From UHGV virus genome UHGV-0113281: a stretch of DNA of 10,004 nt; one strand, 5' to 3'. A program made the translations under genes and the position numbers. The DNA comes from a virus. This document shows, in pieces, positions 1,454 to 9,998 of the stretch (positions are counted from its first letter, which is position 1; every line of letters begins with the position of its first letter). A model generated the notes under the pieces. It saw only the letters and a program-made list of their open reading frames with translations, made no database searches and was not told where the DNA came from.

Positions 1454-1740
1454 GACTTAATCTTCCCCTCCTTCAGCAGTATCGCCTGCGTCCTGATCAC
1501 ACCTTCGAGGTGGTAAAGTCTGGCGTCTTTGTTGTCGAGAATCCTTGTGCGTCGGTCGATCTCCGCGTGGCAGTCACTACAAGCCCATGCACCGATCAGG
1601 TCGTCAGGCTTCATTCCAGTTCCGCAAATTCCAGCCATCCGGTAATGTGCCAGAACTGTAGTTTCAGGATTTCCATTGCATACACCGTAAATACGTACCT
1701 GGCATTCTCTGCCGCGAGCTTCTTTGCGTAGGTTAGCCAT
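1450..1740 (-). CDS. ybcO: YbcO-like DUF1364-family putative nuclease (nin region)
   Basis: The 96-aa translation (MANLRKEARGRECQVRIYGVCNGNPETTVLAHYRMAGICGTG...CSDCHAEIDRRT...TQAILLKEGKIKS) closely resembles E. coli DLP12 YbcO as I recall it, with conserved Cys/His residues. It sits directly upstream of rusA as in DLP12. Start overlaps the upstream stop (TAATG). Confidence 0.85.
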   Translation of the reverse strand: MANLRKEARGRECQVRIYGVCNGNPETTVLAHYRMAGICGTGMKPDDLIGAWACSDCHAEIDRRTRILDNKDARLYHLEGVIRTQAILLKEGKIKS

Positions 1741-2468
1741 TAAGCAGCCTCCCCTGTTACTTTCAGCATTCCGTTATCGAGCAGCTTTCTGGTCAGCCAC
1801 TGTTGACCACGCCCGGTGATTTTTGTGGTGAACGATATCTGTATTCCGTGATTTGTGTTGACCGCTGTTTCTTTCACTGTGAAATAGCCGCGATCCATAT
1901 ATTCCTGCATTGGCACATTGCGCCGGGAACCTGAAGCAATAAGGATTTTGTGATCGCGCATCCACGCAAACAGTTTGTTTGGACCAATTCCAACAACCTT
2001 TGCAAAGTTTCCAATCAAAATTCCGCTGGCCTCGCCAACGCGATCGGCAAACTCAACTTTAGGTGCGGCAATTGCGAGCTGGTTTTCCAGTTGCATTTTC
2101 TGCTCAGCAAGATCAGCAGCAAGGCGCAACGCTTCTGGTAGCGTTTTGGGGATATTAACCGCAGCGTCTTCAAGCTCTCGCCAACGGTCAACAAGACGAG
2201 CGGTGAATTCCGGCGACAACTGAGCGACGACAATAATGCTGTCGCGCTTACCTTGTTCGCCTTCGAAGACGTAATGCTCGTACTGAACATTGAACCCTAA
2301 GTTATTGATTCTTTCGGAAACCTCAATTTGAGGAAGCCGGATAACACCATTTTTAGCCAGCGTTTCGATGGTACGTTTCACATTGTCATGACGCTTACCT
2401 GTAAGCTCAGCGATTTCAATGCTAGTCATTTTGATGACGTTGCTATTTATCAGCTCGTTCATTGTCAT
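1740..2468 (-). CDS. Phage antirepressor / regulatory protein with Rha-type N-terminal domain and KilA-C (ANT) C-terminal domain
   Basis: The N-terminus (MTSIEIAELTGKRHDNVKRTIETL) is typical of the phage Rha family; the C-terminal half (GILIGNFAKVVGIGPNKLFAWMRDHKILI...GYFTVKETAV) is typical of KilA-C/ANT domains. An alternative ATG at 2462 has better spacing to the GAGAGG Shine-Dalgarno. Confidence 0.8.
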   Translation of the reverse strand: MTMNELINSNVIKMTSIEIAELTGKRHDNVKRTIETLAKNGVIRLPQIEVSERINNLGFNVQYEHYVFEGEQGKRDSIIVVAQLSPEFTARLVDRWRELEDAAVNIPKTLPEALRLAADLAEQKMQLENQLAIAAPKVEFADRVGEASGILIGNFAKVVGIGPNKLFAWMRDHKILIASGSRRNVPMQEYMDRGYFTVKETAVNTNHGIQISFTTKITGRGQQWLTRKLLDNGMLKVTGEAA

Positions 2469-2536: not shown

Positions 2537-3472
2537 TCAGTAGCGATGCAGTGAAGGCGGCAACTCTTTGTTCTTAAGCCTTTCCCATGCCAGAAGGTTC
2601 GTCGGCCCGTCAGGCTCATAAATATCTATATCCCGCGTGTGATTAATTAAAACGCCCCTCGCCCTCCCGATGATATACGAGAACTCATAGCCGTAGTCGT
2701 GGCATATGCCGGAATAGTTCGATTGAATTTGTTTTAGCGCCGGATACAGTTCGCGGAATAATGCCTGTGAGCGGTTGGCATAATCCCATAACCATACAAG
2801 GCTGTTTGCTTCTTTTGCAGAAAGCTCGTTGGTTTTCTTCTCTTGTTTGCCAATGAACTCACCTTCAAGTGGAACTCGAGCTGCAAGTGACAGTGCTTCT
2901 GTAAACTGCTCCTCACTGATTTCTTTGTACGAACATCCAAAATGGGATTTCAGTGACGACCACATGGTAATCATTGCCTTCGCCTGTTTTTCTTTTGGCA
3001 GAGACTGACCGCGACTCATGACGAGTTGTTTAATGGCTTCCTGCTGTTCAGTGGTGATTTTACCCGGCAACGCCTTTTTAGCTTTGCGTGGGTTAACTAC
3101 ATGGCCTTTAGTCCAGTAGTCATGCAGCACGCTAAAGCATTCCTCCTGGTACTGAATCAGTTTATCACGGATGTCAGCACGAACTTTCTCAGGGTTGATG
3201 CTGAACAGCCATCCATTGAGTTTCTTCAGCGGTATGCATAAAAGCTTACGTAACTTGCCATCAGCGGCAACCATAGAGATATCTCTACAGTTGAATTTGT
3301 CCTTCATTTTACGCAACTTAACAGATTGACCAGTCCAGTCTATACCAATGTTTTCCACAATTTGACGCATCGCTACATAAGTCACTCCGGCAGCCACAGC
3401 GGTTAAAATCTGCTGACCATTGAAAGGCACGTAAGAGGTGTTCACTGCTTCTAAAATTGCTATACTATTCAT
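2537..3472 (-). CDS. ant: P22-type antirepressor Ant (P22_AR N- and C-terminal domains), 311 aa from the ATG at 3472; the ORF track extends to a TTG at 3502
   Basis: The N-terminus [46 protein letters not shown] is the characteristic Ant N-domain. It sits downstream of arc-like and opposite mnt-like, as in the P22 immI region. The ATG at 3472 has a GGAG about 10 nt upstream. Confidence 0.8.
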
Positions 3473-3545
3473 GTTGGTTTTTCTCCAAGGATTTACCGAC
3501 AACCGAAGCCCTGACTGTTACAGCAGTTGGGGCTTCAACTTTTAT
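3473..3545 (+). ncRNA. Candidate sar-like antisense RNA covering the ant translation-initiation region (about 70 nt)
   Basis: Seen in sequence: plus-strand extended -10 TGcTATACT (3458-3466), giving a start near 3473; plus-strand hairpin GAAGCCC...GGGCTTC (3505-3536) followed by AACTTTTAT (3537-3545). Established knowledge: P22 ant is controlled by the roughly 69-nt antisense sar RNA, which is transcribed opposite to ant and pairs with its ribosome-binding site. The call is inference from architecture only. Confidence 0.3.
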
Positions 3546-3726
3546 CAGCGCCTTCAACTGGAATACTCTCTAGCTTTTCATCTAACCCCTTCTCGCCATG
3601 CATGAAAATAACAATATCTGTAACGCATGAGTCACAAATTGCTTCTTCGGTATTTTTTGACACAACAAAGCCCCTTCCAGTCGTTTCTTTACTACACCCA
3701 CAAAAACAACATCTGCGGTTTTTCAT
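3535..3726 (-). CDS. Small (63 aa) ClpX-type C4 zinc-finger protein, inserted between arc-like and ant
   Basis: The translation MKNRRCCFCGCSKETTGRGFVVSKNTEEAICDSCVTDIV matches the ClpX N-terminal zinc-binding domain pattern (CxFCG ... ICDxCV). A strong Shine-Dalgarno (GAGGGGG) lies 7 nt upstream and the ATG overlaps the arc-like stop (ATGA). Confidence 0.6.
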   Translation of the reverse strand: MKNRRCCFCGCSKETTGRGFVVSKNTEEAICDSCVTDIVIFMHGEKGLDEKLESIPVEGADKS

Positions 3727-3875
3727 ACCACTACCCCCTCTCTCTTCAGGCTGTCCAGCAATCGCTTAATCACTTCCGAGTTAAACGACCGGCATTCTTC
3801 TTTGGCCTTTCCTGTAATCGCATCTTTTAGCGACTGAGGCATTCTCACCAAAATTCTGCTAACTTCTTTTTCCAT
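3723..3875 (-). CDS. arc: Arc-like ribbon-helix-helix repressor (50 aa from the ATG at 3875; the ORF track extends to 3911)
   Basis: MEKEVSRILVRMPQSLKDAITGKAKEECRSFNSEVIKRLLDSLKREGVVV aligns with P22 Arc (the xRMPxxL beta-strand followed by the NGRSxNSE helix motif). The ATG at 3875 has GGTGG 4 nt upstream; the upstream ATG at 3911 lies inside the predicted promoter -10 and has no Shine-Dalgarno. Confidence 0.7.
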   Translation of the reverse strand: MEKEVSRILVRMPQSLKDAITGKAKEECRSFNSEVIKRLLDSLKREGVVV

Positions 3876-3984
3876 ACCGCCACCATGTGAGTTATTGTGA
3901 ATCACAAACATATCACTGTGACTATATCAAGTCAAAATTTTTTTGAATACACTGTGATATCAATGTGATTATCACGGTGTAAGT
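3876..3984. promoter_or_regulatory. Divergent arc / mnt control region with clustered palindromic operators
   Basis: Seen in sequence: a 109-bp intergenic region with eight TGTGA / TCAC half-sites, including the palindromes TTGTGAaTCACAA (3895-3907), TCACtGTGA (3913-3921) and GTGATtATCAC (3965-3975), plus direct repeats of TGTGAT (3954, 3964). The Pmnt promoter could not be placed confidently. Confidence 0.5.
3907..3935 (-). promoter_or_regulatory. Candidate Pant-like sigma70 promoter for the arc-ZnF-ant operon
   Basis: Seen in sequence: on the minus strand, -35 TTGACT (plus 3935-3930), a 17-nt spacer, and -10 TATGTT (plus 3912-3907). The spacer contains the palindrome TCACtGTGA, matching the known placement of the Arc operator inside Pant in P22. 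Confidence 0.45.
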
Positions 3985-4239
3985 ATGACGAAGGTTAGAG
4001 ACATAGCCCCATATAGCGTAAGAATGCCAGATAGCCTCAAGCGCGACCTGACCATAAGAGCATCGAAAAACGGACGCTCATTAAATTCAGAAATAGTTAT
4101 GATCTTGCAAGCTGCTATTGATGAAGAAAAATCACCAAGATCAATAGAAGGTTTTGCTCAACAAGAATCTGAAAAATTTAGGGAGGCTCTTCTTAAGACT
4201 CTCAGTAGCATGTACGGAGAAGATAAAAAACCCACCTGA
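3985..4239 (+). CDS. mnt: Mnt-like ribbon-helix-helix repressor
   Basis: The 84-aa translation (..YSVRMPDSLKRDLTIRASKNGRSLNSEIVMILQAAI...LLKTLSSMYGEDKKPT) aligns along its length with P22 Mnt (83 aa; RMP...NGRSMNSE...DLYKKTT). It is divergent from arc-like and has a GGTG Shine-Dalgarno 5 nt upstream. Confidence 0.8.
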   Translation: MTKVRDIAPYSVRMPDSLKRDLTIRASKNGRSLNSEIVMILQAAIDEEKSPRSIEGFAQQESEKFREALLKTLSSMYGEDKKPT

Positions 4240-4249
4240 CGGCGGGTTT
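4226..4249. terminator. Hairpin terminator shared by the convergent mnt-like (+) and YafO-like (-) genes
   Basis: Seen in sequence: AAACCCACC-TGAC-GGCGGGTTT; on the minus strand the stem has one G-U pair and is followed by UUUUUUAUCUU. It overlaps both stop codons and is the stronger terminator in the minus direction. Confidence 0.5.
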
Positions 4250-4697
4250 AGTCAAACATAGTGTTTCTAAAGTCTCTCGCATACCCTGCTAACACTCTCA
4301 TTCTATTATGATTGTTAGCAGACATGTGAGCTACAGGGTGAAAAAGAGCAATCAATGAATACCTGTTCTCATCAAAAAGATTTTGTGCATAAACGAGAGC
4401 GGTATTGGATGTTTTATGCCACTGCAACTTTTGCGGTGTGCTGATATCTGTGCCATTTTTTATTGGCTCAAATTTATTTTCACCAATTGCTAAATGAAGG
4501 TGCATAAGACCTGCATCTTCAATATCAGGAGGCCGATGATAAGAGGTGTCTCTGCCAAAATAGCTGGGCAACGTTCCCGTAGACTTGTAGATGATAAAAT
4601 CATCTACAAGTGTTTGTTTTAAATCAGGAAACTCAACAAAAACCGGGGAGAAAAAATAGTCAAAACTATCCTGATTATATTCCACGGTTACTTGCAT
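4248..4697 (-). CDS. YafO-family toxin homolog (type II toxin-antitoxin toxin; ribosome-dependent mRNA interferase family)
   Basis: The 149-aa translation shares conserved blocks with E. coli YafO as I recall it: DFIIYKSTGTLPSYFGRD, MHLHLAIGEN, QKLQWHKTSNTALVYAQNLFDENRYSLIALFHP, NNHNRMRVLAGYARDFR. It starts 8 nt after the stop of the upstream gene. Confidence 0.7.
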   Translation of the reverse strand: MQVTVEYNQDSFDYFFSPVFVEFPDLKQTLVDDFIIYKSTGTLPSYFGRDTSYHRPPDIEDAGLMHLHLAIGENKFEPIKNGTDISTPQKLQWHKTSNTALVYAQNLFDENRYSLIALFHPVAHMSANNHNRMRVLAGYARDFRNTMFD

Positions 4698-5777: not shown

Positions 5778-7946
5778 TTACTCCTGTGCCATTCCGCTTA
5801 GCGATGCCACAATTCCAGCTCTTGCTAAACGCTGGAACTCTTCGTTTCCTAGTGCCTCGCGTATTGCTTTTACGGCGGCCTTATTTGCCATAAATCTGCG
5901 TTCCGCCGCCGCTAATGCACCATCACTTGCCCCAACCTTAACTGCCTTTGTTGCCTCTTGAACAGCCTTTTCAATAGCGTAACGACCGCTTCTAGTTGCG
6001 GATAATTTCGCTATCGCTCCTTTTGCCATTGCATCAATTGCCCCACCTGCAGCGCCACCCGCTATTGCTCCAATGACGCCTCCTCCAGAGAACCCTGCGA
6101 TAGTGCCAATAGTTCTAAAAGCGCCAGACAATGCGCTCTCTAAAACTGGATGAAGGCCATTCTCAAGAGTGCTAATGGCTGGCATAGATCGCCCTGTCTG
6201 TTCAACATATCGAAGTGGCTTTGTTGCTGCTCGTGCAAGTTCTCCGTATGAACTTGTAATCCTGCCAAGATCTGGAGAATATCGACTAATTGCCTTCACG
6301 TTTTGTGGGGTAAGAATAGTCGCGATATGCTTAATTCCAGCCTCTTCAGACTTACCTCCGCGTACCCCTTGCGACATTGCATCTTGTAATATTGATGCAA
6401 TTGCTGGCGCGCGTTCCGACTCAGGTAGGGCGCTTATTATTTTATGGAACTGACCTGTTCCACTTTTTGCTGAACCCTGTAACGCCTTAGATCCATTAGT
6501 TACCAACTGATCAGTTGCAAGGTCTCTACCAAACGCTGCTTCAGCCTGTTCTTGTGCTGTAAATCTTGCCTTTGACAGATCATTAGCTTTTTGCCAGTCA
6601 TCAAGAAAACCGCCATTTTGAGCCATTATGCGCATATCTTCCGTTGCTGCATCACGAAGCTCAGCCATGCGCCTTGCCGTATTTGCCTCACCAGACCTTA
6701 TATACTTCTGCTCTGCGTCAGCAAGTTTACTTCGCCATGCCTTCATGGCATCAAACGTGATTCCTTTTTTACCAGTTTTAGCATAAGCAGATGCGAATTG
6801 TTTCATCTCAGGAGTTAGCGGCATGCCAGCCAAAATATCACCCTGAATTGTAGCGTTCAGGTTTGACATTCTGGCCTTTGCGTCAGGCATCGTGGAGCGG
6901 ACGCTATCCCATGCAGCCTTTTCTGAATTTTTCATTTTATCAATACTTGCCAAAACCCTTTGTTTTATGGCTGCACTTTTTTCTGATGCAGTTCCTGCTT
7001 CAGCCCCAAACTCATCCAATGCTGAGTTAAATTTCGACTCTATTTCACTGAATGCTTTGGTGTGTGCATCCTGTGTAATTCCGGGCTTTGACGCCAGAAT
7101 CCCCTCCGCCTGAGCAAGACCACGACTACCTGATCTCATGCCAGGAGTTAATGCGTTGATATCTATTCCAGCAGTATCTGCTGCTTTTGCTATTTCGTCT
7201 GACACATTAGCTGACTGTCTGGCAATAATCTCTCTTCCTGTACCAGACTTTGCCATTTTCGAAACATCAGCAGCGGAATTTATTGCCCCGCCACCAAGAA
7301 CTTGAGGTGATTTAGAGGTTAAGATCCTTCCAGCCCCAGAAAGTATCCCCTGAGCACCAATATTGATACCACCGTTAATGGCAGCATTTTGTGCAAAATC
7401 ACCCTCCTGATTTGCAGCATCAGCAAGAGAACCGGCAATCATGTTACCTGCGGAACCGATGTCTCCTGAGAGCTTTGCTGGCGCTCCAGCAGCTTTTGCT
7501 GCTGTGCCAATTGGCAGGAGGTACCCACCAATTGTTTCACCGGCTTGCGCGTAAGGGTCTGTCGGTCGATCGACTGGACGATAGACATCATCCAATACTT
7601 TTGGCCCACCAAGCCCCTGACTGATTGCATTAATCAGACTTGCGCCACCCTGCAATACGTCAAATGGTATGTTTACCAGACCACGACCAGCCTGTTCTGC
7701 AATTTGCCCTGCACTTTGACCACCAGTGAGCCAATCGCCAGCTTGTTGCATCAATGATGGTTCTTCTTTCTGCTGCTGAGGCGGAGGGTATGCTGCATAA
7801 AACTGATCTCTTGCTTCAGCCCATTTGTCACCAGCCTTAGGGGCAACAACCTCATCAAAATATTGCGCTTGAGCCTGTGCTTTCTGTTCTTCAGTTAACG
7901 CCTGATACTGTGGAGAAGCGATAACATCTTTCCATGCTTTAGCCAT
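5778..7946 (-). CDS. Putative ejection / internal virion protein, P22 gp16-like (722 aa)
   Basis: Last and largest of three consecutive Ala/Gly/Gln-rich low-complexity proteins, located immediately before the immI-like module, matching the P22 7-20-16 order. Start overlaps the upstream stop (TAATG). The call rests on synteny and composition. Confidence 0.5.
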
Positions 7947-9295
7947 TAATCACCCCATAAAGACGAGAAACCGGACTTATTGCTGTCGCTTCCTGATTTT
8001 CGCTCACTAACATATGTGTCATAACCTGATGAACTGTATCCCATTGATTCAGCCTCCCTTGCTGCAACCTTTTGAAATACAGAATATTGAGATCGTATTT
8101 CAGATAACTGTTTTCTGACGACCTCTTCAGGCTGTGTTATATCGAGTTTCGCGATCAGGTTTTCCAGTTTTTGGCCTTCAGCATTGGAGAGGCTACCCAT
8201 ACCTCGCATAGTCTGCACGTTCTGGACAAACGCACCCGACTTTAATTCTTCTATCGCATTACGGTTTGCAAGCCCTTCAGCACTTGTGAAGCCATCTATA
8301 TTTCTTCCTTCGAAGCGACCGATACCTTCAAGCTCCTTCTTACCAAGCAAAGAATCTATTTTCTCTATCCCTCGCTCACCAGTAATCAACGCATTGTTGT
8401 AATTATTGTTGCCATCAAGCCATCTCTTAGCCTGAGACATTCTGGCTGACGTTGCAGCTTTACCGGTTAGAGGATCAATTCCCGTCGCTGCTATCTGTGA
8501 GTTAAGAGACAAAACATCCATATCCTGAAGTTGTCCTGCTCTTTCAAGGGCCGCCTGTGACTGCTTAAACACATACTTGTCGTGATTCAGTCTTGCCATT
8601 TGAGCCTTATAGGAAAGATCCTGCCCCCTAATAGCCCTCGCATTCGTCATGTCATTATTGCGAATGGTTTCGTTAATTCTTTGCTGCTCCTGCTGGCGAC
8701 CAACCATCTTGTCCTGAACAGCAAACGCCTTTTCTGGCCCAAGCGCACCGAGAGACATAGTAGTCAGCATGTGTGATAGCTGCTCTGGATTCTGGATACC
8801 TGTCTGAATCATCCAGTCAGCATTCGCACCCACGCGATTTAACCTGTCCTTGTTGTCAGTAATGAATTTACTGTAGGCTTCCGGTCCCTGAGAAAGAGCG
8901 ACGTTAGCCCTCATGGCTAAATCGCCCATATCGTTGCGTTGCTGATCATTAAGACCGGAAAACGCCTGTTGTGCCTGTGCAACAAACGCTGGATTTTCCT
9001 GGGCAAACTTAAATAGTCCCGATGGATCACCAGAAGCCCATGCATCAGCGTGAACCTTATTGAACGCACTAATAGCTTTCTGTTGCTGTTCCTGATTGTA
9101 AATATCAGCAACTCCAGCCAGACCACGTAACGCGGTCAGGCCAACGTTATTTGCACCTGAGCGAGCCAGTTCATTGTTTTCGCGGATCAGACCAAGCGTT
9201 GCGTTAATGTCGCTTGCCTTTGGCGCATTCTCATTTTGCGTACCGATGCCAGCCAGAAAACCACCAGAATTAATACCCTGTTGCCACGTAGCCAT
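7946..9295 (-). CDS. Putative ejection / DNA-transfer protein, P22 gp20-like (449 aa)
   Basis: Middle gene of the three-gene block; its size is close to P22 gp20 (471 aa); Gln/Asn/Ala-rich. Synteny-based call. Confidence 0.5.
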
Positions 9296-9305
9296 TGATT
9301 ACCCC

Positions 9306-9998
9306 TTAAAACAACGAGCCAAGCAGACCAAGACCAGCACCGATACCAGCACCCCACGGAGTTGATAGCTCGAGAGCACTGGCTATGCCACCACCCAAAA
9401 GCGCACCGGATGCAGCACCACTAACCCCCTGCTGCAATGCTGACGGTCGGTTGGCGTTTGCCGCTGCAAGAGCCGCGCTTTGCTGTGAAATCTGACTCAT
9501 GTTGTTGGCGTATGTCTGCCCGGCGTTTGCCTGCCCCTGAAGAGCGCCAAGACCGATATTTGCCAGGTTGTTGTAATTGTTCATTTGTCCAGATAGCCAT
9601 TGCTGACCAAGCGTTGGTGCGATTGTTGCTAACTGATTACTGGTTGCTGTAGAGCCTAATCCACCCGTTGCCTCTGCTGCTGCCAGACTCTGGTAACGCG
9701 CCTGACCAGCAAGATCTTTGTACTGCTGAGAGTTGTAATACTGGTTAAGTGCCTGACCTTGCCCTTCCAGAGACGATAAGTTCTCGAGGCTGCCGACATA
9801 CTTATCAGCCAGAGGAGTAAACGGCTTCAGGTTGTTCATGATGGTGTTGAACTGCTGATTTTGCAGGTCTGCGGCATACTTCTGAGCTTCTGCTGCATAC
9901 TTTGCGCTTTTATCAGAGCTGCCACCTTTCCCACCCTTTTCAGGGCAATAAGGTTCCTCGCCGCGCAGTTTTCTGCCCAGCTTAAATGCATATAACAT
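9306..9998 (-). CDS. Putative ejection protein, P22 gp7-like (230 aa)
   Basis: Size matches P22 gp7 (229 aa). Basic N-terminal leader (MLYAFKLGRKLRGEE...), Gln/Asn/Ala/Gly-rich body and glycine-rich hydrophobic C-terminus (GAGIGAGLGLLGSLF). First gene of the 7-20-16-like block. The ATG is 6 nt from the window edge, so the upstream signals are not visible. Confidence 0.55.
   Translation of the reverse strand: MLYAFKLGRKLRGEEPYCPEKGGKGGSSDKSAKYAAEAQKYAADLQNQQFNTIMNNLKPFTPLADKYVGSLENLSSLEGQGQALNQYYNSQQYKDLAGQARYQSLAAAEATGGLGSTATSNQLATIAPTLGQQWLSGQMNNYNNLANIGLGALQGQANAGQTYANNMSQISQQSAALAAANANRPSALQQGVSGAASGALLGGGIASALELSTPWGAGIGAGLGLLGSLF

Follow-up and report, generated by a model that had tools for sequence, protein, structure and literature searches.

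A predicted orthologue of the P22 sar antisense RNA, with its terminator hairpin at a mosaic joint, opposite the antirepressor gene leader of a P22-like E. coli prophage

The window analysed here, a stretch of 10 004 nt (UHGV virus genome UHGV-0113281), comes from a P22-like (Lederbergvirus, HK620-related) E. coli prophage. DNA-transfer (ejection) genes (5778-9998, minus strand) are followed by mnt, Pant, arc and ant, the layout found in P22 and HK620. We found an immI-type module with Arc-like and Mnt-like repressor genes and divergent promoters, in which an extra ORF parts arc from ant. The mnt-like repressor gene (3985-4239, plus strand; 84 aa, Pfam Arc / FitA-like RHH) diverges from Pant and holds the position that mnt has in P22 and epsilon34. 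A candidate Pant (3907-3935, minus strand; TTGACT, 17 nt, TG-TATGTT) was called by the promoter scan, lies where Pant lies in P22, and is the candidate promoter for arc, the extra ORF and ant. The arc-like repressor gene (3723-3875, minus strand; Pfam Arc PF03869, E 2.1e-11) encodes 50 aa by the RefSeq start, its CDS being 153 nt in the RefSeq annotation of a 99.7% identical locus, and its longest ORF extends to 3911. The extra ORF (3535-3726, minus strand) encodes 63 aa with a CxxC...CxxC pattern, and its ATG overlaps the arc stop codon (ATGA, 3723-3726). Last in the series is ant (2537-3472, minus strand; ATG at 3472..3470), whose 311-aa product we identify as a P22-type antirepressor Ant from its Pfam domains P22_AR_N (E 2.3e-42) and P22_AR_C (E 1.7e-28). 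Its Shine-Dalgarno sequence, read directly from the DNA, is GGAG at 3486..3483 (minus strand), 10 nt before the ATG; the P22 record X01916 has a ribosome-binding site annotated at the equivalent place.

Several other elements surround this module. Downstream of ant on the same strand is a second antirepressor-type gene (1740-2468, minus strand; 242 aa) with Phage_pRha and KilAC ANT domains, giving the prophage a tandem pair of different antirepressor genes. Just upstream of immI, and convergent with the mnt-like gene, is a gene whose product belongs to the YafO family of type II TA toxins (4248-4697, minus strand; Pfam E 3.4e-22), and a terminator-like hairpin (4249-4228, minus strand) lies between the two. 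The interval between the arc-like and mnt-like genes (3900-3981) contains several inverted repeats of TCACAGTGATAT-like half-sites; they overlap the predicted divergent promoters and may serve as Arc/Mnt operators.

The leader of ant is the site of an antisense element on the plus strand. The sole Rfam match within the window was RF00262 (sar), which aligned over its full length (model positions 1-68 of 68) to 3473-3540 (+) with 94 bits (E 1.3e-19; the gathering score is 43 bits), and our own covariance model scored 3473-3542 (+) at 101.7 bits. The window copy is identical to P22 sar at 68 of 70 nt. At nt 25 it has C, turning a G-U pair in the 5' stem of P22 into G-C, and at nt 50 it has A, within the terminator tetraloop; neither difference disrupts a base pair. 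No gaps are needed to align the longer interval 3400-3542 with the immI regions of P22, epsilon34 and the E. coli phages N7 and vB_EcoP-611R6; it is ~97% identical to those of the first three, where Psar, sar and the terminator are annotated. In the curated P22 record BK000583, sar is 70 nt long, starts at the base adjoining the ant start codon and has its final 38 nt annotated as terminator. Taking the Rfam match, our covariance model and the P22 annotation together, we predict a sar antisense RNA of ~68-70 nt at 3473..3542 (+); its 5' end should be 3473, adjoining the ant ATG, and its 3' end should fall near 3542. On sequence grounds, the element is an orthologue of sar and goes beyond being merely sar-like. 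The preliminary description of this DNA had proposed an RNA of about 70 nt mirroring P22 sar in geometry and size; the P22 and Rfam alignments bear out the size, and the family score, the identity over 3400-3542 and a layout the same as that of BK000583 bear out the likeness. It had also laid the RNA across both the Shine-Dalgarno sequence and the start codon of ant, of which only the former holds, since the RNA covers GGAG and abuts the ATG.

The promoter Psar maps to a block at 3438-3466 (+), within ant codons 3-12, comprising a -35 element GTGTTC (3438-3443), a 17-bp spacer and the extended -10 TGCTATACT (3458-3466). As had been described, the extended -10 is present just inside the 5' end of ant, where it is antisense to codons 3-5 (AGT ATA GCA, encoding S-I-A). 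The block matches the Psar of BK000583 at 28 of 29 positions and the annotated Psar of epsilon34 at 29 of 29, the latter annotation itself having been made by similarity with P22 Psar (EU570103; PMC2629481). As an isolated motif the TGCTATACT 9-mer is not significant (1 seen against 0.21 expected, with at least one in 39 of 200 shuffles), and a generic sigma-70 promoter scan did not call Psar, owing to its poor -35. Our call of Psar rests on homology to annotated Psar sequences and on conservation of the extended -10, not on the scan; likewise it is homology and conservation that give the observation as a whole its weight, and not the 9-mer motif by itself.

To describe that conservation we surveyed 111 loci that had enough flanking sequence, drawn from among the matches listed for the terminator hairpin together with added relatives. 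A -10 of the form TG-n-TAnnnT precedes the ant ATG with TG in 110/111 loci and TAnnnT in 111/111; the hexamer is TATACT in 95 of them, the others having TAAGCT, TACACT, TAAACT or TACAAT, and the distance from the -10 to the CAT complementary to the ant ATG is 3 nt in every one. The Ant proteins of these loci have N-terminal domains from three unrelated Pfam families (P22_AR_N, Bro-N and KilA-N). All three kinds start with M-x-S-[IVL]-[AS], with ATA, GTA or TTA as codon 4, and the Pfam domains begin only after this leader, at residues 12-23. Because the same leader stands before unrelated domains, with codon 4 limited to these forms, what is constrained would be the Psar -10 in the DNA, not the protein; the Ant leader appears to be dictated by the antisense -10 rather than by protein function.

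Minimum free energy folding gives the RNA two hairpins. The 5' stem-loop (3473-3500, +) has an outer stem formed by 3473-3478 and 3495-3500, and it carries the anti-Shine-Dalgarno CUCC (3483-3486) in its apical part. The intrinsic terminator (3505-3543, +) consists of a 14-pair hairpin at 3505-3536, capped by a UACA tetraloop, and then AACTTTTATC, in which TTTT occupies 3540-3543; the hairpin and T-run of the preliminary description are thus both in place. The terminator scan called this hairpin on the plus strand only, and it corresponds to the annotated sar terminator of BK000583. A 75-nt transcript adopts the two-hairpin fold with an energy of -33.2 kcal/mol (z = -6.3), which none of 200 shuffles equalled. 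A bidirectional terminator that would halt Pant transcripts before ant was also considered and was rejected, there being no U-run after the hairpin on the sense strand.

The same fold is conserved among relatives. An IMG/VR scan for the terminator hairpin yielded at least 120 contigs, and searches of phages and E. coli added distant relatives. Among the variant loci, 11 of 13 passed the Rfam sar gathering score; in our covariance search, three weak reverse-strand matches to the near-palindromic hairpin were dropped by a stricter E-value. We assembled 22 distinct sar variants. A MAFFT alignment of these misaligned the 5' stem and was not used for pair counts; a covariance-model-guided alignment has 98.2% of its pair cells occupied by standard pairs and 9 of 20 pairs changed on both sides, counts that are biased towards the model's structure because the alignment is fitted to it. 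Within the 5' outer stem, compensatory changes occur at all six of six pairs. These pairing and covariation measures were reached by none of 500 shuffles, and a control in which the 3' partners were slid by 1-3 columns reduced pairing to 35-43%. To offset the lean of the guided alignment we also folded each variant individually: 22/22 gave the same two-hairpin shape, with the anti-Shine-Dalgarno in the apical part of the 5' hairpin throughout. The 32-nt hairpin stem is invariant in at least 120 viral contigs, an invariance inflated by the sampling of loci (L008-L127) through exact hairpin match; since most loci were picked this way, conservation of the terminator stem is informative in four divergent phages only. 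In these (Cronobacter ES2, Salmonella SPN3UB and SEN22, and Erwinia Midgardsormr38) the terminator sequence is altered and its pairing kept. Loss of the -10 and hairpin in related prophages had been named beforehand as an outcome that would count against the antisense RNA; instead both are kept, with compensatory changes.

Psar, sar and its terminator are already known and common, and the present copy is 97% identical to the prototype. Knowledge of sar dates back to 1987. It is listed with mnt and arc among the controllers of ant (PMC2629481), it binds the ant mRNA (PMC11016777), and its role as a repressor of ant is credited to Liao et al. 1987, Wu et al. 1987, and Schaefer & McClure 1997 (PMC2629481, PMC11016777). 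During P22 infection it was also found to be an abundant small RNA (PMC13397905). One source presents sar as an inhibitor of 'arc translation' (PMC12111858); we set this aside, as it disagrees with what the other sources say and does not fit the geometry seen here.

P22 sar and the window element share the placement of the promoter inside ant, the start by the ATG, the two-hairpin fold, the terminator, and the ant leader and Shine-Dalgarno sequence as target. The immI context is shared as well, with mnt, Pant, arc and ant set within the late operon of a P22-like phage. The hosts differ, E. coli for the window and Salmonella for P22, and the T-run is one T longer in the window (TTTT against TTT). 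The gene with its 3' end at the terminator also differs, being the 63-aa zinc-finger ORF in the window rather than arc. Epsilon34 (EU570103) likewise shares the Psar block and a nearly identical sar with the window, whereas it has a P22-type arc directly upstream. Phage vB_EcoP-611R6 and the E. coli prophages P393-F10, VR50 and W46 show the same order as the window (mnt, arc, small ORF, sar, ant), although in vB_EcoP-611R6 the slot is filled by an unrelated 73-aa ORF that is not a zinc finger. The records of these four bear no sar annotation.

Phages have other cis-antisense RNAs: OOP of lambda and P22 (against cII/c1), sas of P22, and c4 of P1 and P7, which controls ant. This list draws in part on PMC13397905. 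Like sar, each is a short antisense RNA that ends at a terminator and sets how much of a lysis-lysogeny regulator is made, and c4 resembles sar further in that it controls an antirepressor. They are unlike the window RNA in having no sequence or structure relation to it, Rfam having matched sar only. In contrast with sar, c4 arises by processing of a transcript of the same strand, with a coupled ORF upstream as its target, and OOP aims at the 3' end of its target gene.

Every feature that defines sar and can be checked in silico is present, and by analogy with P22 the RNA would be transcribed and would repress Ant here too. We are highly confident that the interval is the sar of a P22-like prophage: an RNA of ~70 nt made from Psar, ended by its terminator, that hides the ant ribosome-binding site and limits Ant synthesis. 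We picture its action as follows. Psar, weak and with an extended -10, would fire inside ant on the opposite strand, starting at ~3473, and the two-hairpin RNA of ~70 nt would end at its own terminator (the 3505-3536 hairpin and U-run). The ant mRNA leader from -1 to about -70 is fully complementary to sar, which would pair with it; the 5' hairpin would bring the anti-Shine-Dalgarno, and pairing would hide the ant ribosome-binding site. Ant synthesis would thereby be held down both from Pant transcripts and from late-operon read-through, the latter being proposed because the gene order (ejection genes, mnt, Pant, arc, ant) is that of P22 and HK620. Untimely inactivation of the prophage repressor by Ant would in this way be prevented. 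That sar is made here and represses Ant translation we infer from the P22 literature.

A possible objection is that the conserved structure acts on the sense strand only, as a structured ant mRNA leader serving stability, processing or coupling to the upstream ORF, with no antisense RNA at all and with the -10 a by-product of Ant codons. The complementary hairpin can indeed form on the sense strand, the -10 does overlap coding sequence, and its 9-mer carries no significance by itself. Yet the U-run follows the hairpin on the plus strand only, the sense strand having GGUUGUCGG there; the whole sense leader is not unusually stable (z = -1.8); and M-x-S-I-A before three unrelated domains, with ATA, GTA or TTA codons, speaks for selection on DNA, not protein. 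With sar experimentally established in P22 and 97% identical here, we give this objection almost no credence. It might also be argued that the sar sequence has outlived its function as a decayed remnant in an immI region that no longer works, any RNA being without a role. This would fit a prophage-type sequence with extra genes around immI (the zinc-finger ORF, the YafO toxin gene and the second antirepressor), but the ant, arc and mnt genes are unbroken and encode complete Pfam domains, Psar, both hairpins and the Shine-Dalgarno sequence are intact too, and the two differences from P22 break no pairs. Moreover, the layout of arc, extra ORF, sar and ant occurs in an isolated phage, vB_EcoP-611R6, with its different, non-zinc-finger ORF. 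We consider such decay very unlikely.

A further reading concerns the terminator hairpin (3505-3536), which could be kept mainly as a recombination linker for exchange of ant-side and arc-side modules, termination being secondary. Both flanks of the invariant 32-nt hairpin are mosaic: the matches listed join 14 ant-side types to 19 upstream-gene types in 41 different ways, and across these the sar 5'-stem type is tightly linked to the ant-side type while the genes on the arc side reassort freely. From these sequence comparisons the sar terminator hairpin behaves as a mosaic joint between the ant module and the arc-side module. The mosaicism and the invariance of the hairpin in at least 120 contigs favor a linker role, but exact-match sampling inflates that invariance, and the hairpins of ES2, SPN3UB, SEN22 and Midgardsormr38 change in sequence yet stay paired. 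Pairing kept through sequence change in distant phages indicates that selection sees structure, and hence an RNA function. We regard a mainly linker role as possible, while leaning against it; the linker and terminator roles are not mutually exclusive.

That the gene upstream of ant is a zinc-finger ORF rather than arc, as the preliminary description noted, agrees with our finding of the 63-aa CxxC...CxxC ORF there, with the arc-like gene beyond it at 3723-3875/3911. Homology to P22 ends exactly where the sar terminator ends. The stop codon of the ORF (TGA, 3537..3535) falls inside the descending arm of the terminator stem; because the ORF ends there, sar overlaps its stop and last two codons (3535-3542), whereas in BK000583 the 3' end of P22 sar overlaps the arc stop codon by 2 nt. 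This ZnF-ant context is real, and judging from the alignments it does not change the sar/ant module itself; the arrangement is a common mosaic variant. The prophage E. coli P393-F10 has the same 63-aa ORF, annotated as a hypothetical protein, with 99.7% identity over 3300-4249. From one locus to another, small ORFs of many kinds fill the slot between arc and the sar terminator, and several of them have CxxC...CxxC (L007, L048, L057 and others).

The 63-aa ORF belongs to phrog_7150 (E 5.7e-8), for which the PHROGs label is 'unknown function'. Against Pfam PF06689 (ClpX C4 zinc finger) it stayed below the gathering score of 27, at 12 bits (E 0.2), while the 60-aa slot ORF of L057 passed with 43 bits. 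Its best PDB match on its own was ClpX, a weak one (E 0.028), and an AlphaFold single-sequence model had a pLDDT of 48, too low for use. A profile built from five slot ORFs, among them the true ClpX-type L057, matched the ClpX zinc-binding domains in PDB entries 6vfs (E 1.7e-8), 1ovx (7e-5) and 2ds5 (1e-4). The family of the 63-aa ORF appears, from comparison with this profile, to resemble the ClpX zinc-binding domain, although the profile includes that ClpX-type member. A literature search for phage proteins resembling this domain in antirepressor regions found none. Pressed further, the resemblance would make the ORF a free-standing, ClpX-zinc-binding-domain-like third immI protein, which might, for example, change how fast Arc, Ant or the prophage repressor is turned over by acting as a decoy for ClpX substrates or adaptors. 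The ORF would be co-transcribed with arc and ant, and because its stop codon lies within the sar terminator, sar pairing or any cleavage of the duplex would separate expression of arc and the zinc-finger ORF from that of ant. The terminator hairpin would then be the joint at which accessory genes are swapped in. We think this composite proposal unlikely to be correct and offer it as speculation.

Of 5426 complete E. coli genomes, 618 contain a stretch resembling the sar interval (for example NZ_CP076274.1, 852237-852345). The RefSeq features listed under the E. coli matches were flanking protein genes only, with no RNA gene among them. It seems that sar is systematically unannotated in E. coli genomes, and with no RNA gene among those features a regulator of prophage antirepressors is routinely omitted from annotation. 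The value of the present case as a discovery is small; its practical value is for annotation. Some novelty lies only in the behavior of the terminator as a mosaic joint and in the immI insertions that encode mini-proteins similar to the ClpX zinc-binding domain. The comparative set also illustrates a modular logic, in which the -10 and 5' stem travel with each ant type and the arc side is swapped at the terminator hairpin; this modularity could guide work on cross-regulation between co-resident prophages.

The sar/ant module is not restricted to P22-like podoviruses, as seen in the chromosome of E. coli O145 RM9872 (our locus L005, 638-2296). There, an mnt/arc/sar/ant moron with a Bro-N-type Ant sits amid the tail genes (tape measure and minor tail protein L) of a lambdoid, siphovirus-type prophage of O145 STEC strains. 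The zinc-finger ORF at this locus is apparently truncated, a C-terminal remnant of 40 aa being all of it that was recovered as an ORF.
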